Position numbers and translations under genes: made by a program. From the NCBI GenBank assembly GCA_044356305.1, contig JBIKWM010000015.1, positions 1,552 to 65,551 of the forward strand: a stretch of 64,000 nt of DNA. Reading direction: 5' to 3'. The DNA comes from Flavobacteriales bacterium (lineage in GTDB: Bacteria; Bacteroidota; Bacteroidia; UBA10329). Below the pieces are notes generated by a model that did not search any database, was not told where the DNA came from, and was given only the letters and a program-made list of their open reading frames with translations. Positions 32,782-49,116 of the stretch are shown piece after piece (the first letter of the stretch is position 1; each line of letters begins with the position of its first letter).

Positions 32782-34150
32782 GGACTTTCTTGCCGAAGAC
32801 AGTGAGAAAGACGACTTTAAAGTCAAGCCATAGGCTCCAATTTTCGATGTACCACAAATCATGCTTTGTCCGATTATACTTTTGGTCATAGGTCTCTGTA
32901 GGGCCTCTCCAGCCATTCACTTGTGCCCAACCCGTTATACCAGGTTTAATATAATGACGAATCATGTATCCGTCAACATCACGCTGAAAATCCTCGTTCA
33001 AAAGGGTTCGATGTGGTCGTGGCCCTACAACACTCATATCGCTCAAAAGGACATTTATAAACTGGGGCATCTCATCAATACTGTACTTGCGCATGAAACG
33101 GCCGATGCGTGTCACTCTTGGATCATCCTTAACGGTGCTTTGGGTATTGTTTTGTGCCGGGGCGTTCTGACGCATGCTCCGAAACTTGAAACACTTGAAA
33201 GGTCTACCTCCTTGCCCAATGCGCTCAGGCACATAAAACACAGGGCCAGGGCTCTCAAATAGAATTAGTAGCGATATGACCATCAGAACGGGTGAGAGTA
33301 TAACAAGAACACATGACGCGAAAATCAAATCAAACAAACGCTTCAATAATTTATTAACGAGATTGTCCAATGGAACTTCTCTTACATTCACGATTGGAAG
33401 GTCACCCACGCGATGGAACACGTAAGAAGCATTAAAAATTCGGTAATAATCGGGTATAAGGCGAATCCTGATGCCATGGAAATCAGCGATATCAACGACT
33501 GATTTAATCTTCTCCTCAGCAGACACGGGGAGTGCCAGATAAACTTCATCTATATCGTACTTCTCAATGACACCCTCGAGTATATCCAATGGACCAAGCT
33601 GAAGCTCAACAGGTGTATCTGAACCAACGAAATCATCGTCAAGAAATCCTATGACACGGTAGCCCAAAGCCGGATTTGAGACCATGAAACGGTAAACCTT
33701 AGTTCCCACTCTACCCGCCCCGAGCACTAGTACCTTTACCATGTGCCTGCCCCGCTGCCTCATGATTCTCAAATACTGATATAGAGCCACATAACCGAAA
33801 TTGCGCAATAGGAAAAAAATCCCGATGGTACCGAAAATCATCAGCCGTGAGTACAGCTCAATATTGAACAATAGGATACCTACAGAGACCGCTCCGCTGA
33901 GCATGAGGAAATCAATAATCTGAATTCTCACCCGAGAACTTACACGTTCGCGGAAGGCTAAGTTCTGATTGCTGAAAAACAAGACTATTGCTGTCCATCC
34001 AACTGAAATGACCAAGAGGGCGAAATAAGCATTAGGTCTGGGGCTGAGGTTTCCGAATTTGACCAACCCTGCCAGGTAGAACGAGATGACAATAAGGAAC
34101 AAGTCATACACAAGAAAATATCCAACCAGCCTCTTGTCTCTCTGAAGCAT
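32765..34150 (-). CDS. Undecaprenyl-phosphate sugar-1-phosphate transferase (WbaP/WcaJ family initiating enzyme)
   Basis: N-terminal TM bundle, CoA-binding-like domain, and the Bac_transf domain (PGPVFYVPERIGQGGRPFKCFKFRSM...DEMPQF...VVGPRP). The longest ORF runs to 34267. The Met at 34150 avoids overlap with the divergent gene. Confidence 0.8.
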   Translation of the reverse strand: MLQRDKRLVGYFLVYDLFLIVISFYLAGLVKFGNLSPRPNAYFALLVISVGWTAIVLFFSNQNLAFRERVSSRVRIQIIDFLMLSGAVSVGILLFNIELYSRLMIFGTIGIFFLLRNFGYVALYQYLRIMRQRGRHMVKVLVLGAGRVGTKVYRFMVSNPALGYRVIGFLDDDFVGSDTPVELQLGPLDILEGVIEKYDIDEVYLALPVSAEEKIKSVVDIADFHGIRIRLIPDYYRIFNASYVFHRVGDLPIVNVREVPLDNLVNKLLKRLFDLIFASCVLVILSPVLMVISLLILFESPGPVFYVPERIGQGGRPFKCFKFRSMRQNAPAQNNTQSTVKDDPRVTRIGRFMRKYSIDEMPQFINVLLSDMSVVGPRPHRTLLNEDFQRDVDGYMIRHYIKPGITGWAQVNGWRGPTETYDQKYNRTKHDLWYIENWSLWLDFKVVFLTVFGKKVHENAF

Positions 34151-34162
34151 CCCCTTCTGCTC

Positions 34163-35320
34163 TTGAGGCGCAAATGTACACGCGAAACAACTGGTAAAAA
34201 TTATAAGGCGCTCACTGATTCTGCTGAATCGAGATGTCCAGAACGATTGTTGTTCAAAATAGACCACCGAAGCTTGAAAGGCTTATTTTTGCGGCACCAT
34301 AAAAGGCCTGTGATTTTATTTGACGTTTACCATTTGCCGCAGTGGAACTTCCTGCGGAGCTCTATTCACTCGGTCGAAGCTGAGGAGCGGATAGTGTGCT
34401 GTGTGGACCGTTCTAAACTGGTGAGCATAATCCGTAAAGAACTCAACGGGGGCACGTTCATTCATTTCGGTTCCTATAGGAACAATTTTGGTTTTTTAAG
34501 CATGGTGTTCCTCATAATAATCCCTAGGATACTTTGGCTGATATACATACTGAGGAAGTTAAAGGTCACCTATGTTATTTCGGCAAACTACCAGTCAAAT
34601 CTTGCGGCCCGTTTCTGGGGCATCCCGAATATTGTATTCAATGATGATCCGCGTAAAGGGGTGATTCAAATTGCGAGATTTGCAGCAAATGTCACCTACC
34701 TTACTAAGGGCCTGAAATACCCGGGTACTCGAGAATTGAACTGTTTAAAAGAGTGGGCATACTTAGCTCCGAAGTATTTCAGCCCTGACCGAGGTGTTCT
34801 CACGTCTATGGGTCTCAGTCCCTTCGGTTACATAATGCTACGCGAGGTCAGCACTGAGACAACCAACTACTCCCAACAAAAGGCCGGCATGCTCATTACG
34901 GCTGAAGTGCCTGAGGGCGTCACGGTGATTCTGTCTCTTGAGAACAAGAAAATGCGGGCTCAGGTGCCTATTGGTTGGACGATACTTGAAGAGCCAGTGA
35001 ATGATATCCACAGTCTGATGTTCTTCGCCCGGGGTTTCGCGAGCACAGGGGATAGCATGGCCCGAGAAGCTGCGGAACTTGGCGCACCTTCATTCTATTC
35101 GGGCATTCGGGACATGGGTGCCAATAAGGTGCTGATTGATATGGGGCTAATGGAACAGGCCACAGCTGAGGAGGCCATCGCTAGGCTCTGTTCACTGAAG
35201 CCAATTACGGATGTTCAAGCAGAGGTCAACAGGCGCCAAGAGATAAGAGAGCGCATTGCCAGAGAATGGGATGATGTGAATGAATTGATACAAAGTCACT
35301 TGAAAGAAACCAAGAAATAA
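34163..35320 (+). CDS. DUF354-family protein (glycosyltransferase-like fold) in the polysaccharide locus
   Basis: 385 aa. The N-terminal region ...ILFDVYHLPQ...GIPNIVFNDD resembles DUF354. The true start may lie downstream of the first ATG. Confidence 0.45.
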   Translation: MRRKCTRETTGKNYKALTDSAESRCPERLLFKIDHRSLKGLFLRHHKRPVILFDVYHLPQWNFLRSSIHSVEAEERIVCCVDRSKLVSIIRKELNGGTFIHFGSYRNNFGFLSMVFLIIIPRILWLIYILRKLKVTYVISANYQSNLAARFWGIPNIVFNDDPRKGVIQIARFAANVTYLTKGLKYPGTRELNCLKEWAYLAPKYFSPDRGVLTSMGLSPFGYIMLREVSTETTNYSQQKAGMLITAEVPEGVTVILSLENKKMRAQVPIGWTILEEPVNDIHSLMFFARGFASTGDSMAREAAELGAPSFYSGIRDMGANKVLIDMGLMEQATAEEAIARLCSLKPITDVQAEVNRRQEIRERIAREWDDVNELIQSHLKETKK

Positions 35321-36624
35321 TGGACGTTTCAATTTTCGGGCTTGGATACGTTGGATGCGTGTCGATGGCATGTTTGGCCAAAGCCGGCCACCGCGTAATT
35401 GGGGTTGATGTGGCGGCTGATAAGAACATGCTGATTAACAGTGGCAGGGCCACAATTGTGGAAAAAGATATTGACGACCTGATTGAGGAAGGTTGGAAGA
35501 GAAATGCTCTGAGTGCCACTGCTGATGCTACCGAAGCGGTTATGAATTCGGAAGTGAGTATCATCTGTGTAGGTACACCCAACAACGACCGAGGAAATCT
35601 CCACCTTCGATATATTGAAGAGACAGGTAGAGCCATCGGCTTAGGGTTGCGTAAAAAGGAAGGCTACCATGTGGTAGCGATCCGCAGCACTGTGGTGCCT
35701 GGAACCTGCAGCAGCCTTGAAGAGATTATTGCTCACGAATCGGGCAAGACCCCTGGGGTTGATTTCAGTGTCCTCAGCAATCCCGAGTTCCTTCGGGAAG
35801 GAAGTGCAGTAAATGACTATTTCAATCCGCCAATGACCGTCATAGGATCTTCAGACACCAAAGCCGTTAAAGTGATAAGTCGGTTATATGAGAACCTTCC
35901 TGCGCCCATTATTGTAGTGGAGACCAAGGTGGCAGAAGTCATTAAATTCGTCAACAATTCATATCATGCCCTTAAAATAGCCTTTGCGAATGAAGTAGGG
36001 AATACGTGTAAGGCGTTGGGCATAGACTCGCATCAAGTGATGGAACTGTTTGGCCAAGACACGAAACTGAATATCTCTACTGCTTATTTCAAACCGGGCT
36101 TCGCCTATGGAGGTTCATGCCTTCCGAAGGACCTGCTGGGATTGATTGCAATGGCCCGAGATAATGATGTGCGAACCCCATTGTTAAAAGGCATTTCAGA
36201 AAGTAATGATGAGCAGGTCCAACGGGCACTCAGATTGGTTTACGCATCAGGAAAGAGAAAAGTAGGGATGCTTGGCCTTTCCTTTAAAGAAGGTACCGAT
36301 GATTTGCGTCTGAGTCCACACGTGGTTGTGGCCGAAACGCTTTATGGCAAGGGCTTCCAGTTAAGGATATTCGACAAGAATGTGCACGTATCAGGACTCC
36401 ATGGAAAAAACAAAGCATATATGGATCATCACCTACCTCACCTCAACTCTCTTATATCTGATGACTTGGAGGCTGTCATTGTTGAATCAGATGTCATTAT
36501 ACTAAGTCACAAAAATCAGATATTCAGCAACATACATCTTCGCTATCCCGAAAAATTGGTTATTGATCTTAACAGGAACGTACCGATTCTCAGCGCAGGA
36601 AATTATCAGGGCATATGTTGGTGA
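35320..36624 (+). CDS. GDP-mannose 6-dehydrogenase (AlgD-like nucleotide-sugar dehydrogenase)
   Basis: 434 aa. MDVSIFGLGYVGCVSMACLAKAGHRVIGVDV..., GGSCLPKD catalytic Cys, and a C-terminus ...QGICW. These features track AlgD along its whole length. Confidence 0.75.
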   Translation: MDVSIFGLGYVGCVSMACLAKAGHRVIGVDVAADKNMLINSGRATIVEKDIDDLIEEGWKRNALSATADATEAVMNSEVSIICVGTPNNDRGNLHLRYIEETGRAIGLGLRKKEGYHVVAIRSTVVPGTCSSLEEIIAHESGKTPGVDFSVLSNPEFLREGSAVNDYFNPPMTVIGSSDTKAVKVISRLYENLPAPIIVVETKVAEVIKFVNNSYHALKIAFANEVGNTCKALGIDSHQVMELFGQDTKLNISTAYFKPGFAYGGSCLPKDLLGLIAMARDNDVRTPLLKGISESNDEQVQRALRLVYASGKRKVGMLGLSFKEGTDDLRLSPHVVVAETLYGKGFQLRIFDKNVHVSGLHGKNKAYMDHHLPHLNSLISDDLEAVIVESDVIILSHKNQIFSNIHLRYPEKLVIDLNRNVPILSAGNYQGICW

Positions 36625-36633
36625 CCGTGTGGG

Positions 36634-37590
36634 TCACAGGCCAGGACACACTCTGTTGTAAACAGACATTAGCCGCCTAGCTACTGTGCGGTTGTCATAA
36701 CTGGTGAAATTGGGCCCAGCAGTACTGCGCGTACCGGTGCCCATCACCGTCTGAAGCGCATCGACATAAGCTCCGATTGACTTTGAAATGATGTGGTTCC
36801 CTGTTGAACCAATGCAGATTCTGCCCACTTCTCCCACATCGTTACTCACAATAGGTAGTCCATTAAGAAGTGCTTCTTTTATTACCTGAGGACTTCCTTC
36901 TGAGACGCTGCACATCAGTAGTGCATCTGAGGCCTTCATTACGGCTGTCACACCGGCCCTATCAAGGCCTTTAAGTTCTAAGAACTCAATATTGCGCTGT
37001 GGATTACGTTTGCGCAACTCATCAATAACGGAATGAGCAAATACTGGATCCTTCTCAGGCCGAGTGAACGATGAACAGAAAAGGACCACAAAAGCATTAG
37101 CATCAAGCCCTAATCTGCCCCGCGTGTTAGTTAAAGTACTCTCTTTCGATTCAAAATCAATACCGCATGGAATTACCTCACTAGATAACGGAAGTAGGGT
37201 CTGCAAGGGCGCGGATACCACAATCCGCGCATGGGCCAGCAGACCGGCAGCCCACGAGACCCACCTCTCTCGGCCCAGATTCAAGTCGCTGCCATGGTAA
37301 GTGACAACCCCTTTGGCGCGTTTCCAGAACATACTCCTTACGGCACACATTGCAGGCAGAGCCGAAAGGCCATAGTGTGCGTGCAATATTATAGGGTCCA
37401 TCTGCCATATTCGATTGCACAACTCGAAATAGGTCTTAAAGTATCCCATTATTCCTCCCTTACCAATCAAATGATGACAGACTTCTCCGGAATTGGTGAA
37501 GCGTTCCAAGGCTATCGCCTGCTCTTCTACAAAAGGATGTGGGCGGCCATCAGGATTACTCCTGCTCACGAAGATGATCTGTTCTTTCAT
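36634..37590 (-). CDS. Glycosyltransferase family 4 (GT-B)
   Basis: C-terminal GT4 motif region (...EGSPQVIKEALLNGLPIVSNDVGEV...). The start is trimmed to the Met at 37590 (MKEQIIFVS). Confidence 0.7.
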   Translation of the reverse strand: MKEQIIFVSRSNPDGRPHPFVEEQAIALERFTNSGEVCHHLIGKGGIMGYFKTYFELCNRIWQMDPIILHAHYGLSALPAMCAVRSMFWKRAKGVVTYHGSDLNLGRERWVSWAAGLLAHARIVVSAPLQTLLPLSSEVIPCGIDFESKESTLTNTRGRLGLDANAFVVLFCSSFTRPEKDPVFAHSVIDELRKRNPQRNIEFLELKGLDRAGVTAVMKASDALLMCSVSEGSPQVIKEALLNGLPIVSNDVGEVGRICIGSTGNHIISKSIGAYVDALQTVMGTGTRSTAGPNFTSYDNRTVARRLMSVYNRVCPGL

Positions 37591-38818
37591 TCTGTTTCTT
37601 CTGATGGTAAGCAGCCGCCAATAGTCCCAAGTAAATGAAAATGAACGAGCGGAAGGAAATAATGTACATCTGTCCACTCACTGAGATAACGAATTGAATT
37701 AGAAACATGAACCAAAACAACCTGACGTTCTCATCAGACCAATCCTTAAGAGGCATCCTGAAAAGGAAGGGTATGGCAAAAAGGAAAATGAGGTAAATCA
37801 AAAGGCCCACCACACCTCCGCCATGCAACCAAGTGAAGTAGTCAACATGGATCATTCTGTCCAAGTACATTCCCCCGCCATAATTTCCCATAGAGTTGAA
37901 CATCTCAAAACCAAAGAGTGATTTGGGAACATCGCGGAACATAAGCACCTCTTCGTAAATGATCCCGATCTCCTGATAACGCATTTCGCCTTCAAGGGAC
38001 TCTACAGCCATCTTATCAGCCCTGGCCTCCATTCGCTCAAGGAATGCCTGAGAATTTACCGTCACAAAAAATGCCAATCCCAATATGATAACCGATGGGA
38101 GCAGGCGAGAGAAAACGGTGCGGACACTACCGGTGTTCATGAAAGCCACGCCCATCACAACAATCAAGGGTGAGAGCCTTCTCAGAGTGAACACCAGCAA
38201 AACTGTACTTATGGCCGATGCGGCCAACTCGATATATCTTCTCATTAATGACCCTGATCCACCTAGGGTGGTCAAGGTCACAATAGTCATGAGCGAGATT
38301 AAATGCAGATCCGAGCCGAAGAGGTAACCTGAGAGGAATGAATCGCTCCCGTATGTGCTCACTCCGAAACCGAAAATATTGCTCAACATCACATAGATAA
38401 TGAATATGATCAGCGCTTTAGGAAACAATGCCCTCAATCTGGCCAGAACCCGCTGGGCATCCTTCACCCGAAAAGCCAAAGAGACAAGTATCAAAGGGAT
38501 GAACACCCTCATTGCAAATCTGGCCGAGTGTTCTACATCTGAGCTCCGCATTATCCCTATCAAAGTATATAGGACAAGAAAAATGAGCACGATATCAAGA
38601 CGCCTTAGTCCGGTCCGCGCATAATGAACCACTATGAATATATAAAAGAACCCGGCCCTCATAAGAGCGATCATGCCTGCTAACTCCGGACTTTGTGCCA
38701 TATCAAGCGCGATATTCAGGACAAATGCGGAGAACATGAAATCACCGAGATTCAATGACTTTACACTCAGGAAAAGCCAGAGCACAATGAGAAAAATGGC
38801 AACAACCCCAAAAATCAT
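37556..38818 (-). CDS. Wzy-like polysaccharide polymerase (O-antigen ligase family membrane protein)
   Basis: 420 aa, about 10-12 TM helices with a large loop. Located between the GT and acetyltransferase genes. Confidence 0.55.
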   Translation of the reverse strand: MIFGVVAIFLIVLWLFLSVKSLNLGDFMFSAFVLNIALDMAQSPELAGMIALMRAGFFYIFIVVHYARTGLRRLDIVLIFLVLYTLIGIMRSSDVEHSARFAMRVFIPLILVSLAFRVKDAQRVLARLRALFPKALIIFIIYVMLSNIFGFGVSTYGSDSFLSGYLFGSDLHLISLMTIVTLTTLGGSGSLMRRYIELAASAISTVLLVFTLRRLSPLIVVMGVAFMNTGSVRTVFSRLLPSVIILGLAFFVTVNSQAFLERMEARADKMAVESLEGEMRYQEIGIIYEEVLMFRDVPKSLFGFEMFNSMGNYGGGMYLDRMIHVDYFTWLHGGGVVGLLIYLIFLFAIPFLFRMPLKDWSDENVRLFWFMFLIQFVISVSGQMYIISFRSFIFIYLGLLAAAYHQKKQNERTDHLREQE

Positions 38819-39354
38819 CAGTTCCTGGTTCCAATGACTTTGGCAGGCACACCGCCCACTATGTCATATGCTATAATGTCTTTTGTCACCACACTGCATG
38901 CAGCCACCACAGCCCCTGTCCCTATTCGTACCCCGGGCATAATTACAGCCCTCCTTCCGAGCCAAACATCATCTTCTATAACAATTGCCTTCTCTTGGCC
39001 ATAACCTTGAGTGATGATTGGCCTGTCCACAGAACTGAACTCATGATTGCGTGTATAGAACAGCACTTCAGGCGCAATAAGCACATTATCGCCTATTGTA
39101 AGATCTCCATGCACTTCGCACAGTCGGCCCAAGCCGCTATTATTGCCAATGGAGATTCTGCCTTTTCCGAGATAACATTCGGCATCGATATTGACATTGG
39201 AACCTACATGCCTGAGAAACATACGGGCGAACGTAGCCCTCAAAGTCTTACTGGGCGGACCTACCAAAGGCAACGATGTCCTAGGCAAACGATAGGCCAA
39301 TAGATAATATCCGGCTATTCCTAACCACTTTCTCATCCTCGCATAATTTTCCAA
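38818..39354 (-). CDS. Hexapeptide-repeat sugar O-acetyltransferase
   Basis: 178 aa left-handed beta-helix (IGDNVLIAPEVLFYT...IEDDVWLGRRAVIMPGVRIGTGAVVAACSVV). Confidence 0.75.
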   Translation of the reverse strand: MENYARMRKWLGIAGYYLLAYRLPRTSLPLVGPPSKTLRATFARMFLRHVGSNVNIDAECYLGKGRISIGNNSGLGRLCEVHGDLTIGDNVLIAPEVLFYTRNHEFSSVDRPIITQGYGQEKAIVIEDDVWLGRRAVIMPGVRIGTGAVVAACSVVTKDIIAYDIVGGVPAKVIGTRN

Positions 39355-40037
39355 GTCATCCGCTTAAATTGAAAAGCTAAATGGTAGGCCAAATAGGCCC
39401 AAGTTCTTAACGGTCTCGAGCCTATGGGCTTAAAAGGATAACCGGACTTTTCGAGCTCCATGTTAAACCTAATTCCAATGGTCATGGAGTCGCGGTCATA
39501 GTTTGGTACTTTATCTTTAGTTCCAACCGACTTACCAGCTGTCTCATTCACACGTGGAAGCGGGCGCACTTCAATGGCACCTATTAGGCGCAGCATGTCC
39601 TTAAAATCTGACGAGAGGTTTTCCTTACGCAATAGCAACCGTGGTGATGCTGCTATGAAGTTTGAAGGATCGACAAATGCCAATGGCATGAATAATCTAA
39701 GATAGTTCTCAAAGCCGATACCCACCACTCTGACAAGAAAATAAGCAGGAAGGTTTGCCAAAAGCATCATGTACTTGACTACGGGCCAATTGCCATGATG
39801 CATGAAGTAAGACAAGGGATTGTTCTTGTACTTGAGATACTTGCTATACGTTCGATCTATGGGATCGCTAACCCCGTAGAACAAGTCGTAACCGCTGCAA
39901 TCATCAGGAATCTTGAAGGAATGTTTTGATCCTTCAGACCGACCTCCATATTGACTCATCAGTTCCTGCCTGACAGCTTCGCTCCCTGTGCGTGGAACCT
40001 CAATAAACACCGCTCTGTACCGGTCCAGAATAACCAT
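39333..40037 (-). CDS. Sulfotransferase-family protein
   Basis: 234 aa. PAPS 5'-phosphosulfate loop IEVPRTGSEAV, and an RDP-like 3'-phosphate motif region VSDPIDRTYSKY. Confidence 0.5.
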   Translation of the reverse strand: MVILDRYRAVFIEVPRTGSEAVRQELMSQYGGRSEGSKHSFKIPDDCSGYDLFYGVSDPIDRTYSKYLKYKNNPLSYFMHHGNWPVVKYMMLLANLPAYFLVRVVGIGFENYLRLFMPLAFVDPSNFIAASPRLLLRKENLSSDFKDMLRLIGAIEVRPLPRVNETAGKSVGTKDKVPNYDRDSMTIGIRFNMELEKSGYPFKPIGSRPLRTWAYLAYHLAFQFKRMTWKIMRG

Positions 40038-40040
40038 TTT

Positions 40041-41009
40041 TTATCCGAGTCTTGACTTGAGTTTATGGAACCTCATTCTGAGGCGGTGAGTGTCGAAGAG
40101 TATCATTCGGGCAGTATTTGCCAACGAACCGAAAATGAACCTCAAAGAATCGAACAACAGGTGTAGAAGGTTCATCGGGTTCAGGCAGGCGCTTCTGCGA
40201 CTTAGCCCACCGTAACCGAAGGATTCAAGTTCCTTTATGCACACTAACGAGTAGATGAAATTGACATATCCATCGGGGTCGAATTTACCTTTGTTTCTCC
40301 TGATCACACCGGCACCTACATTTCCATGAAAATGCCTATGGCTTTCTGGGACTACAAACTTCTTGTCCGGCCTTTCTGACACTTGGGTCTTCACTCCGAG
40401 CCACGAAACTATCTCTGCTACCCTTTCCGGATTCTCAAGTATGTCCTCATACCTGACTATGTGCTTGATCCACAAGGTCGAGAGGAATACCCTACTCTTA
40501 TACTGCCAATTGAGGGCTGATTGCAGTACATTTTGGCTAAATGAACGACCAGCCAGATTTGTGCTATTTGCCTTCGACAAATGAACATCCCTGCCGTCAC
40601 GCACCATCAGAATTGCCTTTGCATCGGGCCAGAGGTGCTCAAACTGACGCAGGTGATTAGTAGGAGGATGCTTCACAATGATGCACCTTTCGGTTGAATC
40701 TTCAAACCAAGGGTATCGCAACCTCAGGTGTTCTGCAATGATGGCCTCTGAGAGCGACTTAACATCCGTGTGTCTCTGGGCCATTGTCAGCACGGTGACT
40801 TTGCTCAATCCGAGATCATTGAACTGAGGCTCCTCAAAGAGGTACTCAGTGAGTCGGTCTGCAACTGGCAGCGTTGTCAGGCTCAAGAGTCTACTGACAA
40901 AGGCGGTTTCGTTCGTCACAGCCACGAACTCAAATCGCTCAAGCAAATCGGCCAACATTGTTGACCCGCTCCGGCTGTCGTATAAGATGAATGCCAGTTT
41001 AGAATTCAA
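40041..41009 (-). CDS. Sulfotransferase-family protein
   Basis: 322 aa. 5'-PSB loop YDSRSGSTML and 3'-PB motif MVRDGRDVHLS (R-D-x-R-D). Confidence 0.65.
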   Translation of the reverse strand: MNSKLAFILYDSRSGSTMLADLLERFEFVAVTNETAFVSRLLSLTTLPVADRLTEYLFEEPQFNDLGLSKVTVLTMAQRHTDVKSLSEAIIAEHLRLRYPWFEDSTERCIIVKHPPTNHLRQFEHLWPDAKAILMVRDGRDVHLSKANSTNLAGRSFSQNVLQSALNWQYKSRVFLSTLWIKHIVRYEDILENPERVAEIVSWLGVKTQVSERPDKKFVVPESHRHFHGNVGAGVIRRNKGKFDPDGYVNFIYSLVCIKELESFGYGGLSRRSACLNPMNLLHLLFDSLRFIFGSLANTARMILFDTHRLRMRFHKLKSRLG

Positions 41010-41092
41010 TGTCCTCCCTCTTAAATGCGCCTGCGCGAAATTACATGGTTATATCGGGCCTTGGCACCAGTTCTGGAACAGGTGTTGCCATA

Positions 41093-42331
41093 CTACAAGA
41101 AACTGTTGCCGGTTGTATTCACCATTCTGCGATGCAGCATGTAGTTCCAGAGGGTACCACTTATGAGCGTTGCAATTGCCAGCCCATTCAAGCCTAACCA
41201 TGGCACAGTGGTAAAAGCCAAGATCAATGTTATGACAAGCGATACGGCTGTAGACCGGACGAAGTAATCCCTCATATCGCTCAACTGAAAATATAGGCCA
41301 ACCGGCCCAAAGAAGACATTTAAAACGTTACATAAGATAACTGTAACGCAAAGAATCAAGAACAATGGCTCTGCTGGATAGCCATAGAACTTAAGAAACC
41401 AAGGACTGCAAAGCAGTGCCAACATAGCGAATGCAAAGGTGGTTAGCTTTGATAACCGTATTAGTTGTCTATGGCGGTCCGAGAGTTGGTGACCCTCAGC
41501 TAGCCTTGCCAGGCCCTTGGCAATATCCGCATTCAACGCTACCAGTGGCAGGTTGACAAGCTTACCGAGTTTCTGTACCACGGAATAAAGAGCCACCTGC
41601 CCCAAGGGCAAGAATGCCCCTGCCAAGAAGACCTCGAGCCACCCTTTAAATACCTGAAGCCCACTGCCCAAAGACAGCGAGAGGCCTTTAGTGTAAACTG
41701 ACCAAAAAAGCTTTGGGCTCATTCCAGAATGCTCAGGGGTTGACCCGTAAGACCGGATAAGGACTACAGCCAATGTGATGAGACATGTAATCAGGCCACT
41801 GGTCATGAGCATTTCAACTGGTTCGGCCTCATACTTGGATAGAAGAAAGACCATCACCACGGCCGATCGCAGGATGTCTTTGAACAGAATGTACCAATTA
41901 CCGTTCAGCCAGTAGCGCGACACCTCAAACAGGAACAAGGAGAACGAATATGCGATGAACGCGACCAATAACCTCCAATCAGCCAAGGTGCTTATTGATT
42001 CCAGAGAGGCTATCAGGGCCCCAACCATTGCTATCGCCACAATATTCAGTGCCACCCCCATGGCTTTCAATGTCAACAAATCAACATCAAAGGTCTCTTT
42101 TCCAGCAAATGTCCTTAGTGCCAAGAGACCTTGACCTACCCCTGCCAAAGTGCCGAAAGTGAGGAGATACCCATGTGTGAGAATGTACTCCCCATACTCC
42201 GTGTCGCCCCTGAACTGCATGTAGAGCTTAGCCAGAGCGAACGTAACCAGAACACTGCCGCCCTTAAAGAACAGCGAAGTGAATTGACGGATAACACCTC
42301 TTTTGTTCACCTTACCTGCCATTTGCACCAA
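41093..42331 (-). CDS. Wzx-type oligosaccharide flippase (polysaccharide biosynthesis protein, MOP superfamily)
   Basis: 412 aa with about 12 TM helices, in the Wzy/GT/ST operon. Confidence 0.7.
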   Translation of the reverse strand: MVQMAGKVNKRGVIRQFTSLFFKGGSVLVTFALAKLYMQFRGDTEYGEYILTHGYLLTFGTLAGVGQGLLALRTFAGKETFDVDLLTLKAMGVALNIVAIAMVGALIASLESISTLADWRLLVAFIAYSFSLFLFEVSRYWLNGNWYILFKDILRSAVVMVFLLSKYEAEPVEMLMTSGLITCLITLAVVLIRSYGSTPEHSGMSPKLFWSVYTKGLSLSLGSGLQVFKGWLEVFLAGAFLPLGQVALYSVVQKLGKLVNLPLVALNADIAKGLARLAEGHQLSDRHRQLIRLSKLTTFAFAMLALLCSPWFLKFYGYPAEPLFLILCVTVILCNVLNVFFGPVGLYFQLSDMRDYFVRSTAVSLVITLILAFTTVPWLGLNGLAIATLISGTLWNYMLHRRMVNTTGNSFL

Positions 42332-43193
42332 ATAAGCTGAAGTGCGCGAATGGATCTGACATCGTCATCCTATCCCGAAGTATCATGATGTCGTCAAAAT
42401 CTGTAGTGCGCTTTGAAACAGGCACATTTGTCAATCGTTTATTTCTTGCGGCATAAATTCCAAGTTTAAGGAACAGAGGCTGTGTCCAAGAATCTGAGCA
42501 ATTGAGTCCTTGATGGTCAAACTCGATTCCATTTCTGCCAATAACTTGGAGGCGCCCTTTTTCATTGGATGCGAGCCTGATCACGAGAAGGCATTCTCGC
42601 CATTCTCCAGGTTCGGATAAGAACTTTCTCCTCATCGTTGTTCGCCCTGATGAGTATGACTGCCAGATACCACCTGAAGCATCTGAACGGAGCCGCCCTA
42701 CTAGTGGCAGCCATGGACTGATTGGTTCTTTCTCCTTCTTTGTCCGTGTATGCAACTGCATACAAATCGCATCAGGAAATCCTGTCGCATCATCGGGGAA
42801 GGGTCTCATCCTAAAGTAAACTAGATAGGTCCCCTTGCCAATCTCAAATTCAGAGTTCTCTCCGAGCGAAATCTCCGTTCTGAAATCATTCCTTGGGTCG
42901 TTGTTACTGAGTTCAGCCCTCATAAAGAAAGTTGAATCAGACTCATCCATGACAATAACAGGGCAGTTACCGCTACAAACCCCAGCCTCGCTCAATAATC
43001 CAGTTTCAAAACCACAGCTGAAAATCAACTCAACCTCCTTCTGATTAAGCAGTTTTTGGATTTCCCGTTGAACTGGTCTTTCAGCATTCAAAAGAGTTCC
43101 TTTATCCAGATTGTCCGGCAATTTTTGGCTCATAGACCTGAATGGAATCAGAATCACGAGGCTAATAAGTCTAAGGGTCAAACTATACCCCAT
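42312..43193 (-). CDS. Secreted beta-jelly-roll protein, polysaccharide lyase family 7-like candidate
   Basis: 293 aa with a signal peptide. Three PL7-like motifs in canonical order: FRTEIS (for RSELR), CMQLH (for QIH), LFLKLGIYAARN (for YFKAGVYNQ). Confidence 0.35.
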   Translation of the reverse strand: MGYSLTLRLISLVILIPFRSMSQKLPDNLDKGTLLNAERPVQREIQKLLNQKEVELIFSCGFETGLLSEAGVCSGNCPVIVMDESDSTFFMRAELSNNDPRNDFRTEISLGENSEFEIGKGTYLVYFRMRPFPDDATGFPDAICMQLHTRTKKEKEPISPWLPLVGRLRSDASGGIWQSYSSGRTTMRRKFLSEPGEWRECLLVIRLASNEKGRLQVIGRNGIEFDHQGLNCSDSWTQPLFLKLGIYAARNKRLTNVPVSKRTTDFDDIMILRDRMTMSDPFAHFSLFGANGR

Positions 43194-43197
43194 CGCA

Positions 43198-43779
43198 TCA
43201 AAATTTCAACTCACTTTCCACCGCCCCGCACACACTGTGCGCAATGAGTATATGCATCTCCTGAATGCGCGCGGTGTCATCACTCGGAACAATCAGGGAC
43301 AGATGGCACTTGGGTGCCAACTGGCCACCATCGCGACCTGCAAGTGCGATGCATGTGCAACCGATGGCCAATCCTGCCTTGACAGCGGCCAGCACATTGT
43401 GGCTGTTGCCACTGGTACTTATAGCTATGATGACATCTCCTGGACTTGCCAGGGCCTCCACCTGCCGCGCGAAGATCTGCTCAAATCCAAGGTCGTTGCC
43501 GATGGCCGTGAGAGCGCTCGTGTCAGTTGTGAGAGCAATGGCAGCCAACGCCTTCCTGTCAAACCTGAAACGACCACTCAGCTCGGCTGCGAAATGCTGG
43601 GCATCGGCTGCGCTTCCCCCATTGCCACACAAAAGGACTTTGTTACCTGCATAGAGTGCCTTTATGATCAATTGCGCCATTGCAGCCATCTGAGGCGCCA
43701 ATGCGTTTCGCACAGATGTGAGGACCTCGGCATGGGCGTCTATCTCATCAATCATGCTCTTCTCCAACGGGCTCATCAC
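43198..43779 (-). CDS. gmhA: D-sedoheptulose-7-phosphate isomerase
   Basis: 193 aa SIS domain ([19 protein letters not shown]). Confidence 0.9.
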
Positions 43780-44723
43780 TTGCTCAAGTATCCATCGGTT
43801 GAACTAAGAAACGCGTGATAACGTGCAATACCCTCATTGAGTGACATGAACCGGTGCGCACATCCAGCGGCCCTCAATTGATTCAGATCGGCACAAGTGA
43901 ACTCCTGATATTTCCCTTTCAGGTGTTCAGGAAATGGCACCTCCGTCACCTTGCCATTTGGGCTGAGGCGTTGCAGCGAATCAGCCACAGCGGTGAAGGG
44001 TTCGGCCTTGCCGGTGCCACAGTTGAAAATCCCTGTGGTCGGGTGGTCCAGAAAATGAAGAACCACGGCAACCACGTCCTCTACAAAAACGAAGTCTCGT
44101 TTGAATCCCTCACTTCCCTCAAACAACTGCATGGATCCACCCTGCTGCAGCTGCCTGTAAAGATGGTACGCAACCGAGGCCATGTGCCCTTTATGGTTCT
44201 CTTGTGGCCCATATACGTTGAAGTACCGTAGACCCGTGACAGGCGCATGCAGGTTACCTTTTGCCCTACGATGGCGCACATGATTATCGAAGGCAAGCTT
44301 TGAGAAAGCGTATCCGTTTAGCGGCTTTTCACACATGTGCTCTTCGCGAAAACCCAATGTGCCATTGCCATACACTGCGGCACTGCTAGCATAGATAAGC
44401 GGCACATGCCACCTGTTGCAAGCATGCAAAACCTCCTTGCTGTAGAGGTAATTGTTCCGCATCAGGTAATCATTGTCCGTCTGGGTGGTATCTGAACACG
44501 CTCCTTGGTGAATGATGGCCGCATATTTCTGACTCGGCCCCTTTATAAGTGCAAGGAAATCGTCCCTGTGCATGTAGTCAGCATATTGCAGACCATTCAG
44601 ATTAAGAAACTTAGGGCCGTTCCCAAGATTATCGACAATTAAAATATCCCTGATACCACGCTTATTGAGCCCTTGCACAATGTTGCTCCCAATGAAGCCT
44701 GCTCCACCTGTTACAACTATCAT
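43776..44723 (-). CDS. hldD: ADP-L-glycero-D-manno-heptose 6-epimerase
   Basis: 315 aa. [33 protein letters not shown]... and the YxxxK SDR catalytic pair. Confidence 0.9.
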
Positions 44724-46144
44724 ATTGAATCCCTCTTCTGAATGATAGCAGTAGTTGAAAGTCCGGGGACCAGTGGCAGAATGACCGTCTGGTCCGCATG
44801 CTCACGCCCAACCACCGCCTCGGGTGAATAATCTCCGCCTTTGACCAGAACATCGGGTCTGATGAGCTCAATGATCTGGGCCGGAGTGTCCTCATCGAAA
44901 AAAGTCACATAGTCCACAACACCGAGATGCGCAATGAGATAGGCCCGGTCATCGAGGGTGTTGATGGGTCTTGTATGGCCTTTGAGTCTCCGAACGGATT
45001 CATCGGAGTTCAGTGCCACCACGAGCAGGTCGCCCAAGGCGGATGCTCTTTCCAAAAGACTCACATGGCCCCTGTGGAGCACATCGAAGCATCCATTGGT
45101 GAATACGATACGCTTGCCTTCAACTCGTAATCTGATCAGTTCTGCCGTGAGTTCATTAATGCCTAGAATTTTGGAATCAGTTCCCAGCTGTGACGCAAGT
45201 TCTACCTCCTTGCTGGTGACACGTGCCGTGCCAACATGGCCAACAGCGATACCTGCGGCCACATTGGCCAAGCGCAGTCTGAGATGCCATTCGGTGTGGG
45301 TAGACATGAGGAGGGCGACCATAGCGAGGACCGTGTCGCCCGCACCGGTCACATCGAACACTTCACGTGCCGATGCCGGACTGTGCACCGCTTCAGTCGC
45401 AGAGATGTAAGACATCCCGCGCTCCGATCTTGTGACCAGAACGGCCCCTATCCCATGTTCTGTCAACAGTTTTCGGGCAGCACCGGTCACAGACCCATCG
45501 TCATTTCTAACCTCATGCCCCGAAGCATCTCCCAGCTCCTTTAGGTTAGGGGTGATAAGGTCGGCTCCAGTGTATCGGCCCCAGTCCGCACTCTTCGGGT
45601 CAACCACCGAGTATATACCCATCTGTTGTGACATGCTGATGAGCCGTGTGCAGATGTCTGGGCTAAGGGTGCCTTTGGCATAATCACTAAGCACCAGTAC
45701 GGAGGCATGCTCCATGGCCCTGAATGCCCTGGTGAGTAACTCTTCCGTTCGTGTTGGCTCAATGACAGCATTCGCTACTTCGCGGTCTACGCGTACAAGT
45801 TGATGCTTGCCGGCCATAATCCTGGTCTTGAGCACTGTACAGGGCAAAGCGGCCACGAGATCGTGCTCAACGGTCAATTCATTGAGCCGGGCTGAGAGAA
45901 TCTCAGCCTCTCGGTCAGGCCCTACGAAAGAGAGAAGATGGGCACAGGCTCCGAGTGCCACGATATTGGACGCCACGTTGGCCGCACCCCCAGGCGCTTC
46001 AGTCACCTCGCTCTGCAGCACCACCGGCACAGGGGCCTCCGGGCTAATACGATGTGCTGCGCCTGTCACATATCGGTCAAGCATGGCATCGCCAATGACA
46101 ACGATGCGAAGTTGACTGAAATCAGGGAGTGACATGGCCGACAA
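44720..46144 (-). CDS. hldE: Bifunctional D-beta-D-heptose 7-phosphate kinase / heptose 1-phosphate adenylyltransferase
   Basis: 474 aa. N-terminal PfkB kinase, C-terminal cytidylyltransferase (VFTNGCFDVLHRGHVSLL). Confidence 0.9.
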   Translation of the reverse strand: MSAMSLPDFSQLRIVVIGDAMLDRYVTGAAHRISPEAPVPVVLQSEVTEAPGGAANVASNIVALGACAHLLSFVGPDREAEILSARLNELTVEHDLVAALPCTVLKTRIMAGKHQLVRVDREVANAVIEPTRTEELLTRAFRAMEHASVLVLSDYAKGTLSPDICTRLISMSQQMGIYSVVDPKSADWGRYTGADLITPNLKELGDASGHEVRNDDGSVTGAARKLLTEHGIGAVLVTRSERGMSYISATEAVHSPASAREVFDVTGAGDTVLAMVALLMSTHTEWHLRLRLANVAAGIAVGHVGTARVTSKEVELASQLGTDSKILGINELTAELIRLRVEGKRIVFTNGCFDVLHRGHVSLLERASALGDLLVVALNSDESVRRLKGHTRPINTLDDRAYLIAHLGVVDYVTFFDEDTPAQIIELIRPDVLVKGGDYSPEAVVGREHADQTVILPLVPGLSTTAIIQKRDSI

Positions 46145-46152
46145 AGGTCGGC

Positions 46153-47436
46153 TCAGACAATCATTCCTGCGCCAACGGTATTGTTGGTGCCTTCATCAAT
46201 AATGATCACGCTGCCTGTGATGCGGTTTTTACGATAACCGTCAAAGAAAAGTGGGGCAGTGGTGCGCAGCTTGATACGACCAATGTCATTCAAAGCGATG
46301 GTCGTATCGCCCTCCACCTTTTGCATAGTGTTGATGTTCATCTTATACATCACCTCTTTGATCACACACCGGGCATCGCGGCTGGTGTGCTTGATCGCGT
46401 ACTTACCGCCAAGTTGAAGTGGGCGATCGCTCATCCAGCATACCATCACATCCACCTCTTGCTCCGCATCAGGGCGGTTGTTCGGTTTCACGATCATGTC
46501 GCCACGGCTGATGTCAATATCATCTTCGAGGGTCATGATTACGCTCATCGGGGCAAACGCCTCCTTCACCTCTTCGCCCATGATCTCGATACTCTTGATC
46601 TTAGATGTGAAGCCGGAAGGAAGCACTGATACCTCTTCGCCTGCACGGAATATTCCGCCAGCCACACGTCCTGCATAACCGCGGTAGTCATGATACTCCG
46701 ATTTCATAGGGCGCACAACGTACTGCACCGGAAAGCGCGCATCGATATGGTTATTATCGCTACCGATGTGAACGTTTTCAAGGATGTGCATCAAGGTGGA
46801 GCCACCATACCAGTCCATGTTCTTGGAGCGGTCCACCACGTTGTCACCCAATAGGGCCGAAATGGGAACGAATCGCACGTCTTTTATATCCAGGCGTGCC
46901 GAGAAATCCTCAAAATCATTACGCACCTTCTCGTAAGCCTCTTCTGAGAATCCGACCAGGTCCATCTTGTTGACACACACCACCACGTGAGGTATCTGGA
47001 GCAACGATGCGATGTAGGCATGGCGCTTGGTCTGCTCAATCACACCTTGACGGGCATCTACAAGTATGATGGCCAGATTGGCCGTGCTGGCACCGGTCAC
47101 CATGTTGCGGGTGTACTGAATGTGACCCGGTGTGTCAGCAATGATGAATTTGCGCTTTGGGGTGGCGAAGTAGCGGTAGGCGACATCGATGGTGATGCCC
47201 TGTTCGCGCTCAGCACGCAGGCCATCGGTCAAAAGGGCAAGGTTCACATGCTCTTCTCCCTTTTTGGCGCTGGCCTGTTCAATGGCCTCCATCTGATCGG
47301 CAAAAATTGACTTGCTGTCGTACAGCAGTCGGCCGATAAGGGTGCTCTTTCCATCATCAACGCTGCCGGCAGTGGTGAAACGGAGCAGCTCCATGTCGAG
47401 GTAGCCGCGGTGGTCGGTGGTTACTTCCTTCGTCAT
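46153..47436 (-). CDS. cysN: Sulfate adenylyltransferase subunit 1 (GTPase)
   Basis: GTPase motifs GSVDDGKST, DTPGH and NKMD. The start is trimmed to the Met at 47436 (MTKEVTTDH...). The longest ORF overlaps cysD. Confidence 0.9.
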   Translation of the reverse strand: MTKEVTTDHRGYLDMELLRFTTAGSVDDGKSTLIGRLLYDSKSIFADQMEAIEQASAKKGEEHVNLALLTDGLRAEREQGITIDVAYRYFATPKRKFIIADTPGHIQYTRNMVTGASTANLAIILVDARQGVIEQTKRHAYIASLLQIPHVVVCVNKMDLVGFSEEAYEKVRNDFEDFSARLDIKDVRFVPISALLGDNVVDRSKNMDWYGGSTLMHILENVHIGSDNNHIDARFPVQYVVRPMKSEYHDYRGYAGRVAGGIFRAGEEVSVLPSGFTSKIKSIEIMGEEVKEAFAPMSVIMTLEDDIDISRGDMIVKPNNRPDAEQEVDVMVCWMSDRPLQLGGKYAIKHTSRDARCVIKEVMYKMNINTMQKVEGDTTIALNDIGRIKLRTTAPLFFDGYRKNRITGSVIIIDEGTNNTVGAGMIV

Positions 47437-47473
47437 TATTTCCTGATTGATATGATTTATAATATGTTGAAAT

Positions 47474-48469
47474 TCAGAAATATCCCTGCTTCTTCCTGTC
47501 CTCCATGGCGGCCTCAGAGCGTTTGTCGTCCTGACGGCTGCCGCGCTCGGTGACGCGAGATGATGCCACCTCCTCAATTATATCCTCAAGGGTTGAGGCA
47601 TTGGACACAGTGGCCCCGGTGCAGGTCATATCGCCTATGGTACGGAAACGCACCTGCATGGTCCGCCTGGTCGCCAGTTCGCTCTCGCGCAGGTTCATGT
47701 ATTCAGAGTAGGCGTACAATGCCCCGTTGCGCTCGATCACCTCACGCTGGTGAGTGAAATAGATGCTCGGCATAGGGATGTTCTCCATCAGTATGTACTG
47801 CCATACATCCATCTCGGTCCAGTTACTGATCGGGAACACCCTGAAGTGCTCGCCCAGGTGCTTGCGGCCGTTAAAGAGGTTCCACAGCTCGGGGCGCTGG
47901 TTCTTTGGGTCCCATTGGCCGAACTCGTCACGGTGAGAGAAGAAACGCTCCTTTGCACGGGCCTTCTCCTCGTCCCTGCGTCCTCCGCCAAGGGCAGCAT
48001 CAAACTTGCCAGCCTCAAGACTCTCGAGCAGTGTTACTGTCTGTAGAGCATTGCGACTTGCGTTGTAGCCCTTCTCTTCAACTGCGGTCCCACGGTCAAT
48101 GGAATCCTGAACGTGGCCCACGATGAGCTTGGCCCCCGTGCGGGCTACCAGCTCATCGCGGTAGTCAAGGGTCTCTTGAAAGTTGTGGCCCGTATCGATA
48201 TGCAACAAAGGGAACGGGATGCTGGCCGGATAGAAAGCCTTCATGGCCAGATGGGTCATCACTATTGAGTCTTTACCACCTGAGAAAAGCAGCACGGGGT
48301 TCTCGAACTGTGCTGCCACCTCGCGCATCACGAACATGCTCTCTGACTCGAGCTCGCGGAGGTGATTGAGTTTGTATGCCTTTGATTCCAAGTTGATTGA
48401 AATTGTATTATTCGTTTGATTTAGGCCCTTATGCGACCCATGATCGCGGCCAATACCTGATCTGCACAT
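47474..48469 (-). CDS. cysD: Sulfate adenylyltransferase subunit 2
   Basis: Colinear with E. coli CysD (LNHLRELESESMFVMREVAAQFENPVLLFSGGKDS...KKQGYF). The ATG at 48469 overlaps cysC by 49 nt. An in-frame TTG at 48391 aligns with the canonical N-terminus and removes the overlap. Confidence 0.88.
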   Translation of the reverse strand: MCRSGIGRDHGSHKGLNQTNNTISINLESKAYKLNHLRELESESMFVMREVAAQFENPVLLFSGGKDSIVMTHLAMKAFYPASIPFPLLHIDTGHNFQETLDYRDELVARTGAKLIVGHVQDSIDRGTAVEEKGYNASRNALQTVTLLESLEAGKFDAALGGGRRDEEKARAKERFFSHRDEFGQWDPKNQRPELWNLFNGRKHLGEHFRVFPISNWTEMDVWQYILMENIPMPSIYFTHQREVIERNGALYAYSEYMNLRESELATRRTMQVRFRTIGDMTCTGATVSNASTLEDIIEEVASSRVTERGSRQDDKRSEAAMEDRKKQGYF

Positions 48470-49023
48470 TCCTCCACTGAACGGCCAGCGGTAGGCACAT
48501 CCACATCGGGCCGGTCGGGTGCCTCAAAAGGGGCATCGAGGCCAGTGAAGTTCTTGATCTCGCCTGCGCGGGCCTTTTTGTAAAGCCCTTTCACATCGCG
48601 TCTCTCACACTCCTCGAATGAGGTGTTCACGTAAACCTCCACAAAGTCATCGGCACCGATAATGTCTTTGGCCATTGTTCGGATGTCGCGCGTGGGGCTC
48701 ACAAAACAATTGATGGTGACAATGCCACAGTTCACAAAAAGCTTGCTCACCTCCGCTATCCTGCGGATGTTCTCAGTGCGGTCATCCTCACTGAAGCCCA
48801 AGTTGTTGCAGATGCCTGTGCGCACATTGTCGCCATCGAGCACCTGGGTAAGAATGCCTTTTTCGGCCAACTTCCGCTCAAGTGCCGCAGCTATGGTGGT
48901 CTTTCCCGACCCGCTAAGACCGGTCATCCACACCACCGAACCACGCTGCTTGAGCATGGACTCCTTATCGCCCCGCTGAAGGATGCGATCGAAAGTAGGA
49001 TGGATGTTTTTGCCTGTCAACAT
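48421..49023 (-). CDS. cysC: Adenylyl-sulfate kinase (APS kinase)
   Basis: 200 aa. P-loop GLSGSGKTT and the conserved APS-kinase core. Confidence 0.9.
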   Translation of the reverse strand: MLTGKNIHPTFDRILQRGDKESMLKQRGSVVWMTGLSGSGKTTIAAALERKLAEKGILTQVLDGDNVRTGICNNLGFSEDDRTENIRRIAEVSKLFVNCGIVTINCFVSPTRDIRTMAKDIIGADDFVEVYVNTSFEECERRDVKGLYKKARAGEIKNFTGLDAPFEAPDRPDVDVPTAGRSVEECADQVLAAIMGRIRA

Positions 49024-49116
49024 GTGCCTTTGGGGAAGGGCGCGAAGGTATGAAATAGCTATGAAGGGCCTTTCAGGCCTTCCACTACCTTCGGGCAGCC
49101 AAATAGTTCATGTCCG

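Follow-up and report, generated by a model that had tools for sequence, protein, structure and literature searches.

Dedicated genes for ATP sulfurylase and adenosine 5′-phosphosulfate (APS) kinase are linked to a Sulfotransfer_3-type enzyme in the rhizobial nodPQ/nodH and Xanthomonas raxPQ/raxST systems, whose secreted acceptors are a lipo-chitooligosaccharide or a peptide tyrosine and not a Wzy-polymerised polysaccharide. For polysaccharides, the capsules of Vibrio sp. KMM 8419 and Cobetia marina KMM 1449 have been chemically proven to be sulfated, and their clusters carry cysN, cysD and cysC together with sulfotransferase genes, a combination that the authors consider a hallmark of sulfated polysaccharide synthesis (PMC11641403, PMC11766843). 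The Wzx/Wzy-dependent xss cluster for synechan in Synechocystis sp. PCC 6803 encodes two sulfotransferases of different subfamilies, and the sulfate content of synechan agrees with the number of sulfotransferase genes (PMC8205485). In the literature searched, we found no described sulfated-capsule locus from Bacteroidota. Here, we analysed a 64,000 nt stretch (hereafter the window; contig JBIKWM010000015.1, positions 1,552–65,551 of the forward strand) of the Flavobacteriales bacterium assembly GCA_044356305.1, from an uncultured organism known from metagenomes alone. It contains a polysaccharide locus in which cysC, cysD and cysN head a row of 13 genes that includes two sulfotransferase-family genes, ST1 and ST2. 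The best and most economical reading is that this locus probably directs sulfation of a polysaccharide fed by 3′-phosphoadenosine 5′-phosphosulfate (PAPS).

The nodPQ/nodH and raxPQ/raxST systems differ from the window locus in taxa and gene order. The Vibrio and Cobetia clusters resemble it in holding cysN, cysD, cysC and sulfotransferase genes inside a polysaccharide cluster, but they are gammaproteobacterial, comprise about 70–80 genes and use ABC-transporter (kps) export, while the window locus lies in a Flavobacteriales metagenome-assembled genome (MAG), is of the Wza/Wzc/Wzi type and has about 19 genes. The Cobetia cluster also contains cysQ and a sulfate permease gene, neither of which is in the window, and the cys genes in the Vibrio sp. 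KMM 8419 cluster are a second copy. The products of both clusters are chemically proven, whereas the window locus is known from its genes alone. The synechan cluster is plasmid-borne and cyanobacterial, encodes eight glycosyltransferases and its own regulators XssQ, XssR and XssS, has no PAPS-synthesis genes among its listed genes ('PAPS' and 'cysN' are absent from the text of the paper), and has its outer-membrane polysaccharide export (OPX) protein encoded elsewhere (PMC8205485). The window locus, by contrast, includes cysCDN and the export genes, and no more than two or three transferases can be recognised in it. The concept is already published, and the window locus is a compact Wza/Wzc-type Bacteroidota example of it with an unusual second sulfotransferase. 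A preliminary description of this DNA had called such systems poorly characterised, which is dated, since cysNDC and sulfotransferase capsule clusters with proven products have been published (PMC11641403, PMC11766843); it had also proposed the locus as a compact genetic model, which it is not, because the host is uncultured.

The row consists of 13 co-directional open reading frames (ORFs) on the minus strand, from position 49023 down to 36634. Family calls were made with Pfam gathering scores and curated NCBIfam cut-offs, given below in brackets after each score.

48421..49023, minus strand: cysC, APS kinase (APS to PAPS); PF01583, 214.9 bits; NF003013, 246 (163); TIGR00455, 240 (138.7)
47474..48391, minus strand: cysD, ATP sulfurylase small subunit; NF003587, 452.7 (195); NF009214, 445.9 (413)
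46153..47436, minus strand: cysN, ATP sulfurylase GTPase subunit; NF003478, 593.2 (590); TIGR02034, 558 (336)
44720..46135, minus strand: hldE-like, heptose-7-phosphate kinase/heptose-1-phosphate adenylyltransferase; PfkB and CTP_transf_like domains
43776..44723, minus strand: hldD, ADP-glyceromanno-heptose 6-epimerase; TIGR02197, 385 (274.6)
43198..43779, minus strand: gmhA, sedoheptulose-7-phosphate isomerase; SIS_2; TIGR00441, 207.3 (209.45), marginal
42312..43193, minus strand: 293-aa ORF with a hydrophobic N-terminus, possible polysaccharide lyase; PF14099, 24.3 bits (29.9)
41093..42322, minus strand: 412-aa membrane protein with about 10 hydrophobic segments, putative Wzx flippase by position only
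40041..41009, minus strand: ST1, Sulfotransfer_3 (TPST/NodH-like) PAPS sulfotransferase; PF13469, 49.6 bits (27)
39333..40037, minus strand: ST2, divergent Sulfotransfer_2-like protein of 234 aa, by profile homology and predicted fold
38818..39336, minus strand: hexapeptide-repeat O-acetyltransferase (WcaF/WbbJ-like); PF00132, 61.6 bits
37556..38818, minus strand: 420-aa membrane protein with about 12 hydrophobic segments, putative Wzy polymerase by position only
36634..37590, minus strand: glycosyltransferase of family 4 (GT4); Glyco_trans_1_4, Glyco_transf_4 and Glycos_transf_1, each just over gathering

CysC, CysD and CysN all scored above the curated cut-offs, in agreement with the earlier statement that genes for APS kinase and ATP sulfurylase head the row. 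The cysD ORF reaches 48469, with a likely TTG start at 48391 as judged by alignment with the orthologue in L090 (a locus of MAG GCA_021741155.1, see below), and the cysN ORF reaches 47577, with a likely ATG start at 47436 by the same kind of alignment. The closest CysN proteins, 79–85 % identical, belong to Bacteroidota MAGs that carry the labels Flavobacteriales, Bacteroidia or 'uncultured Chryseobacterium', and the closest syntenic loci come from MAGs named Flavobacteriales bacterium at NCBI, which together support the assignment to Bacteroidota. As for the three heptose genes named at the outset, hldD passed its cut-off, while HldE (PRK11316, 484 bits versus 521), in which both domains are present, and GmhA fell just under their equivalog cut-offs.

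In addition to the Sulfotransfer_3 profile, ST1 exceeded the gathering score of PF00685 (30.5 versus 22), and nearly all of its 23 database homologues carry PF13469. Its PAPS-binding motifs, LYDSRSGST in the 5′-phosphosulfate-binding (5′-PSB) loop and VRDGRDVxxSK at the 3′-phosphate-binding (3′-PB) site (VRDGRDVHLS in ST1), are invariant across the 23 homologues, and the strings SRSGST and RDGRD quoted earlier for this protein are both literally present. Matches in the PDB were weak and were to tyrosylprotein sulfotransferases (E ~0.01). Some public gene calls for ST1 begin at Met18 and therefore lose the 5′-PSB loop; since conservation extends upstream of Met18, we assigned the start to the TTG at 41009, the only one with which the loop is present. 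Taken together, its sequence indicates that ST1 is a canonical Sulfotransfer_3 enzyme with intact PAPS-binding motifs.

ST2 gave no direct Pfam or NCBIfam match, even at E=10 in Pfam, and profile searches of PDB sequences returned marginal matches at most. A word-indexed search found three homologues, and 340 relatives at E≤1e-3 came out of an exhaustive search with profiles. PF03567 (Sulfotransfer_2) was matched by 81 of the 108 profile-found relatives that were aligned, and a BLASTP comparison of ST2 with the PF03567-annotated protein of L087 gave E=2e-16. An AlphaFold model built from the three close homologues alone was unusable (predicted local distance difference test score, pLDDT, of 38.8) and was replaced by one built with the 108-sequence alignment (pLDDT of 91.8), for which heparan-sulfate 2-O-sulfotransferase was the best structural match. 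The prediction thus places ST2 in a sulfotransferase fold and not in an unrelated one. Both genes had been assigned to the sulfotransferase family beforehand; for ST1 Pfam bears this out, while for ST2 the assignment failed by direct hidden Markov model (HMM) search and was recovered through transitive homology and fold, by which ST2 is a divergent Sulfotransfer_2 relative.

The unusual feature of ST2 lies in its predicted donor site. At position 57, in the RNPxD/RxPxD motif of the 3′-PB site, it has a serine where 103 of the 108 family members have an arginine, and this serine is common to ST2 and its three nearest relatives. All four motif strings quoted previously for the two proteins occur literally in the sequence, but SDPIDR of ST2, which stands at the 3′-PB position, is without the defining arginine. 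ST2 further differs from heparan sulfate 2-O-sulfotransferase and PF03567 by an arginine for lysine change in the loop, by its shortness and by falling under the detection of the Pfam model. It keeps the near-invariant residues T17, K38, H39, P59, D61, S65, R137, E139, R158, N164 and T166. These features suggest that ST2 may be active through compensation, altered in donor use, or inactive. Neither ST1 nor ST2 has a signal peptide; ST2 has a hydrophobic helix at 85–105 and, at its C-terminus, a long helix, and these would be in keeping with association with a membrane.

A 112-aa gene call for the ST2 orthologue in GCA_021741155.1 was considered as a possible pseudogene and rejected, since the DNA is 100 % identical to a Logan contig with an intact frame of 228 aa. 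The 112-aa NCBI call (L089:9148-9486) is therefore an annotation artefact with respect to the intact frame (L090:8800-9486). With this ST2 orthologue shortened and ST1 calls beginning at an internal methionine, public gene calls hide these sulfotransferases.

To describe gene packing, start codons were refined by alignment to orthologues before the gaps were measured. From cysC to the GT4 gene, in order, the gaps are 29, 37, 17, −4, −4, 4, −11, 83, 3, −4, −1 and −35 nt. The largest, 83 nt, lies between the wzx-like gene and ST1, and most genes overlap or are separated by less than 40 nt, confirming that the row is tightly packed. The span first proposed for the operon, 39333–49023, stops at ST2; the row reaches 36634 and the whole locus 27683.

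A scan for generic sigma-70 promoters and for terminators gave results at chance level, and the sigma-70 model is not appropriate for Bacteroidota. The window contains 16 copies of TAnnTTTG, the Bacteroidota −7 motif. Two of them lie back to back, one per strand, in the 159 nt divergent intergenic region at 34151–34309, 26 nt upstream of the start of the DUF354-like gene and about 28 nt upstream of that of the WcaJ-type initiator (both listed below). The minus strand has no perfect copy from 34178 to 50294, and cysC and ST1 are preceded by a one-mismatch version, TAnnTTCG, at distances of 27 and 34 nt, respectively. Given the lack of a perfect motif over this stretch and the near-motif before cysC, a single long minus-strand transcript is plausible, and the near-motif before ST1 may mark an internal promoter. 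The 17 nt spacer between cysN and hldE (46136–46152) is a perfect hairpin, GCCGAC-CTTT-GTCGGC, without a following T-run, which may be a processing or attenuation element.

We compared the locus with related loci (numbered L001 onwards). L001, L089 and L090 belong to one MAG, GCA_021741155.1, and the DNA of L089 and L090 is 100 % identical. This MAG has the same chromosomal site and architecture as the window, in the order deoC, cysC-cysD-cysN-hldE-fcl-gmd-wzx-ST1-ST2-acetyltransferase-wzy-GT4, dehydrogenase pair, initiator-wzi, wzc-wza, aspS, with GDP-fucose genes replacing hldD, gmhA and the lyase-like ORF. L002 and L091 agree with the window architecture to the ends of their contigs. Genes for GDP-L-fucose synthase and GDP-mannose 4,6-dehydratase were found at L001:4980-6999, L002:468-2487 and L010:5712-7725; their combination with the same ST1/ST2 cassette in L001 and L002 hints at a polymer with both fucose and sulfate. 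The variable region of L010 is another one, with a single Sulfotransfer_3 gene downstream of cysCDN.

The block cysC-cysD-cysN-hldE is kept in all close relatives, with an hldE-like gene directly after cysN in six of six (among them L001, L007, L009, L010 and L011), and this link to a sugar-nucleotide gene hints at a glycan-related role of cysCDN in the lineage. The HldE of the window is 42–46 % identical to the copies of the relatives, which are 52–75 % identical among themselves; replacement of a module downstream of cysN is a likely explanation for this divergent hldE, together with hldD and gmhA. Further away, L021 (419-8261), from the uncultured Cryomorphaceae MAG contig CAZYWJ010000012.1, has five Sulfotransfer_1/3 genes immediately upstream of cysC-cysD-cysN, together with a gene for a Wzx-type flippase and one for a second polytopic membrane protein, and is a denser PAPS-plus-sulfotransferase cluster than that of the window. 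In L017, cysCDN lies beside heptose genes and one Sulfotransfer_2 gene, and in L054 near three sulfotransferase-like ORFs. The syntenic Flavobacteriales MAG loci and the Bacteroidota loci with cysCDN beside one to five sulfotransferase genes support polysaccharide sulfation as the function of the locus, as does the linkage of cysCDN in the six close relatives to hldE and not to reductive sulfur genes.

Several observations weigh against this function, and those that concern cysCDN favour a possible, though doubtful, alternative in which cysC-cysD-cysN is a general sulfate-activation operon, serving assimilation by a PAPS reductase and a sulfite reductase located elsewhere as well as any further demand for PAPS, its position at the capsule-locus edge a matter of inherited synteny, and the sulfotransferases drawing on the general PAPS pool. 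The block is retained whatever follows it, including in L007, where it is followed by ATP-synthase genes and no polysaccharide genes, and in L009, where the initiator and wzi come directly after it and no sulfotransferase gene is seen in the retrieved section of the contig. GC content at third codon positions (GC3) in cysCDN is 0.63–0.68, resembling the core genes aspS (0.67) and deoC (0.66), as compared with 0.45–0.57 in the cassette. Conversely, the Chitinophagales MAG GCA_041392965.1 (L087) has a cassette at 8829-19546 comprising genes for a wzx-like protein, ST1, an unknown protein of 238 aa, a wzy-like protein, a GT4 and an acetyltransferase, followed by Sulfotransfer_2, DUF354, PL8 lyase and NDP (nucleoside diphosphate)-sugar dehydrogenase genes, without cys genes within 10 kb. 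The cys and sulfotransferase modules can thus be separated, and the role of cysCDN may be to fill the general PAPS or assimilation pool.

A sample of 80 cysN loci (±10 kb) points in the same direction. The order cysC-cysD-cysN is standard (66 of 80 loci), and a sulfotransferase-like ORF lies within 10 kb of cysN in only five of them. No cysH, cysI, cysJ or cysQ was found among the scanned window ORFs of at least 150 aa, in agreement with the reported absence of PAPS/APS reductase and sulfite reductase genes, but this absence, previously taken as support for sulfation, discriminates little, since about 78 of the 80 loci likewise lack a cysH-like paralogue within 10 kb of cysN (counted by jackhmmer, as tblastn with CysD was too insensitive). 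Other points against sulfation are the lack in the window of the cysQ and sulfate permease genes seen in the Cobetia locus, the missing near-invariant 3′-phosphate-binding arginine of ST2, which is thus possibly inactive, and the identities of Wzx and Wzy, which are not confirmed by HMM, PDB or significant profile match. Furthermore, neither a GT9 heptosyltransferase gene nor gmhB was recognised; there is no gmhB in the operon, and the sole HAD-family hydrolase found (60890–61519) best matches glucose-1-phosphatase, so that the use of ADP-heptose in the polymer is uncertain.

A purely general role of cysCDN is countered by the extension of the block in all six close relatives by hldE, not by a gene of the cysteine pathway, and by the stretch from cysN to the cassette, which has no terminator-like sites above chance and no perfect promoter motif. 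That dedicated copies exist is evident from the second cysNDC set in the capsule cluster of Vibrio sp. KMM 8419 (PMC11641403). The supply of PAPS by the cys genes for carbohydrate sulfation thus stands as the most economical reading, while 'dedicated' and 'fused', as the preliminary description put it, are overstated: the block is kept without polysaccharide genes in L007, the cassette occurs without cys genes in L087, and the architecture, although it recurs in GCA_021741155.1, L002 and L091, is made of separable modules. We regard cysCDN as a supply module, conserved in the lineage and adjoining a variable locus, and not as a fusion specific to this cassette.

A second alternative concerns ST2, which could be a pseudo-enzyme, a scaffold or a user of a donor that has no 3′-phosphate, such as APS, leaving ST1 as the only canonical sulfotransferase. 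The serine at the 3′-PB position, shared with the three nearest relatives, and the lack of a direct Pfam match would agree with this, as would L088, whose cassette has ST1 without ST2. We consider this reading unlikely, because the other near-invariant residues of the family are retained and because members of the ST2 clade from four organisms are 49–53 % identical, the frame is intact and the predicted fold is confident, which argues for selection on function.

It is also improbable that ST1 and ST2 act on an acceptor other than the repeat unit, such as a lipid, the heptose of the lipopolysaccharide core, a protein tyrosine (RaxST/TPST-like) or a small molecule. The acceptor is not predictable from the family assignment: the nearest solved relatives of ST1, weakly matched, are tyrosylprotein sulfotransferases, Sulfotransfer_3 includes NodH, a glycolipid enzyme (PMC11625862), and Bacteroides uses PAPS for the sulfation of small molecules, namely steroids (PMC13449962). 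Nevertheless, in every locus recovered ST1, with or without ST2, is found among flippase-like, acetyltransferase, polymerase-like and GT4 genes, and in five organisms, with four arrangements among them, the flippase-like gene and the polymerase-like gene flank the sulfotransferase genes directly. Least of all would we expect PAPS from cysCDN to act mainly as a metabolic signal controlling polysaccharide gene expression, as in Vibrio vulnificus, where PAPS accumulation raises cyclic di-GMP and brp expression and cysDNC is co-regulated with brp (PMC6113621), since two sulfotransferase genes in the row provide a direct consumer of PAPS and no regulator or cyclic di-GMP gene was seen in the locus.

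As for the remaining genes of the row, the labels 'wzx' and 'wzy' given to the two polytopic membrane proteins were not upheld by any match to Pfam, NCBIfam or the PDB, including Pfam at E=10 and a PDB profile search. An hhalign comparison of the putative Wzx with canonical Wzx proteins of neighbouring loci gave a collinear alignment of 347 columns that did not reach significance (P=0.06), and that of the putative Wzy with a Wzy_C protein gave P=0.028 over 57 columns, also not significant. The putative Wzx gene is kept directly upstream of ST1 in L001, L002, L087 and L088; the putative Wzy has a hydrophilic loop at about 261–334 rich in invariant R, E, H and D residues and seven homologues, all unannotated. 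The assignment of these proteins as candidate Wzx and Wzy follows from their topology and position and from the presence of Wza, Wzc, Wzi and a WcaJ-type initiator in a locus that has no ABC transporter or synthase as an alternative. The 'lyase-like' label likewise was not confirmed, as the ORF scored below the PF14099 threshold, has no NCBIfam match and is absent from L001 and L002. The acetyltransferase and GT4 genes were both confirmed by Pfam, the former also matching WcaF-family and other O-acetyltransferase NCBIfam models, all under cut-off.

Beyond the GT4 gene, the locus continues through a plus-strand pair convergent to the row (34310–36624), a minus-strand pair (31117–34150) and wza and wzc on the plus strand (27683–30910):

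35320..36624, plus strand: NDP-sugar 6-dehydrogenase (uronic acid supply); UDPG_MGDP_dh N-terminal, central and C-terminal domains; TIGR03026, 379 (189.8)
34310..35320, plus strand: DUF354-like protein, possibly a glycosyltransferase; PF04007, E=0.014
32765..34150, minus strand: undecaprenyl-phosphate glucose-1-phosphate transferase of the WcaJ type; Bac_transf and CoA_binding_3; TIGR03023, 432.4 (410.75)
31117..32781, minus strand: Wzi-like outer-membrane capsule assembly protein; PF14052, 24.6 bits (30.1, not reached)
28475..30910, plus strand: Wzc-type co-polymerase/tyrosine autokinase; Wzz, GNVR and AAA_31; TIGR01007, 151 (108)
27683..28432, plus strand: Wza-type outer-membrane polysaccharide export protein; Poly_export and SLBB

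The DUF354-like protein is 60 % identical to its L090 orthologue, and the equivalent protein of L087 has a precomputed PF04007 match; precomputed PF14052 matches are also found for the Wzi-like orthologues in L001, L002, L088, L089 and L091. A group-1-like set is therefore present, consisting of the polyprenyl-phosphate hexose-1-phosphate transferase, Wza (OPX) and Wzc (a PCP-2a tyrosine kinase). The whole polysaccharide locus extends from 27683 to about 49.0 kb (about 21 kb and 19–20 genes), between aspS (25929–27671) on one side and a DeoC-family aldolase gene (from 49117) on the other. The part from 27683 to 43193 forms a low-GC island (GC 0.42–0.49, GC3 0.45–0.57) inside a genome with a GC content of 0.55–0.62 and corresponds to the serotype-specific part; the GC3 range of 0.45–0.57 covers the genes from the lyase-like ORF to wza, and hldE, hldD and gmhA are intermediate (0.54–0.60). 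It seems likely that the stretch from 27.7 to 49.0 kb forms a single capsule or exopolysaccharide locus of the Wza/Wzc/Wzi (Wzx/Wzy-dependent) type, variable in content but fixed in its position on the chromosome, in which cysC-cysD-cysN and an hldE gene make up the promoter-proximal module.

If the locus directs PAPS-fed sulfation of a polysaccharide, sulfate would be activated in the cytoplasm, to APS by CysDN and from there to PAPS by CysC. The WcaJ-type transferase would prime undecaprenyl phosphate with glucose 1-phosphate, and the GT4 enzyme, possibly with the DUF354-like protein, would extend the unit with sugars that would include a uronic acid from the NDP-sugar dehydrogenase and perhaps L,D-heptose. 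ST1 would use PAPS to sulfate the lipid-linked unit at the cytoplasmic face, ST2 would probably sulfate the same unit at another position, and the acetyltransferase would O-acetylate it. The unit would then be flipped, polymerised and exported via Wzc and Wza, with Wzi acting in surface retention. Co-transcription of the row, the nature of the acceptor, the timing of sulfation and the role of cysCDN as the PAPS source for ST1 and ST2 are all parts of this scheme that we infer.

Elsewhere in the window, a Y-family polymerase gene with IMS domains (minus strand) is divergent from a gene for a 994-aa DnaE2-like polymerase III alpha protein (plus strand) at 51629–56048, in the part of the window with the highest GC content (0.62–0.64). 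A gene for a XerC/XerD-type tyrosine recombinase (14539–15438, minus strand) adjoins a 2-oxoacid:ferredoxin oxidoreductase gene and a histidine kinase/response regulator pair (15746–19978).

Sulfated polysaccharides are valued biomaterials and shape carbon and sulfur cycling in marine and freshwater environments, and bacterial producers with defined genetics are few, namely those of cyanobacterial synechan and of the Vibrio and Cobetia capsules. To these, uncultured Flavobacteriales would add compact loci of about 20 genes of the Wza/Wzc type, self-sufficient for PAPS and with swappable cassettes, of which the window locus is a candidate, small in size, for making a sulfated polymer in a heterologous host. 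The two sulfotransferases belong to poorly sampled clades, with 23 (ST1) and about 340 (ST2) known relatives, one of them with an unusual donor-binding site. In a more far-reaching version, which we regard as unlikely when taken as a whole, cysC-cysD-cysN-hldE would be dedicated to glycan sulfation in a genome without assimilatory sulfate reduction, the cassettes would be interchangeable and the ST2 clade, having lost the 3′-PB arginine, would be non-canonical in mechanism, using for example APS. If this were true, a dedicated module would feed a heptose-type cassette in the window and a GDP-fucose-type cassette in GCA_021741155.1, giving sulfated heptose-containing or fucoidan-like capsules.

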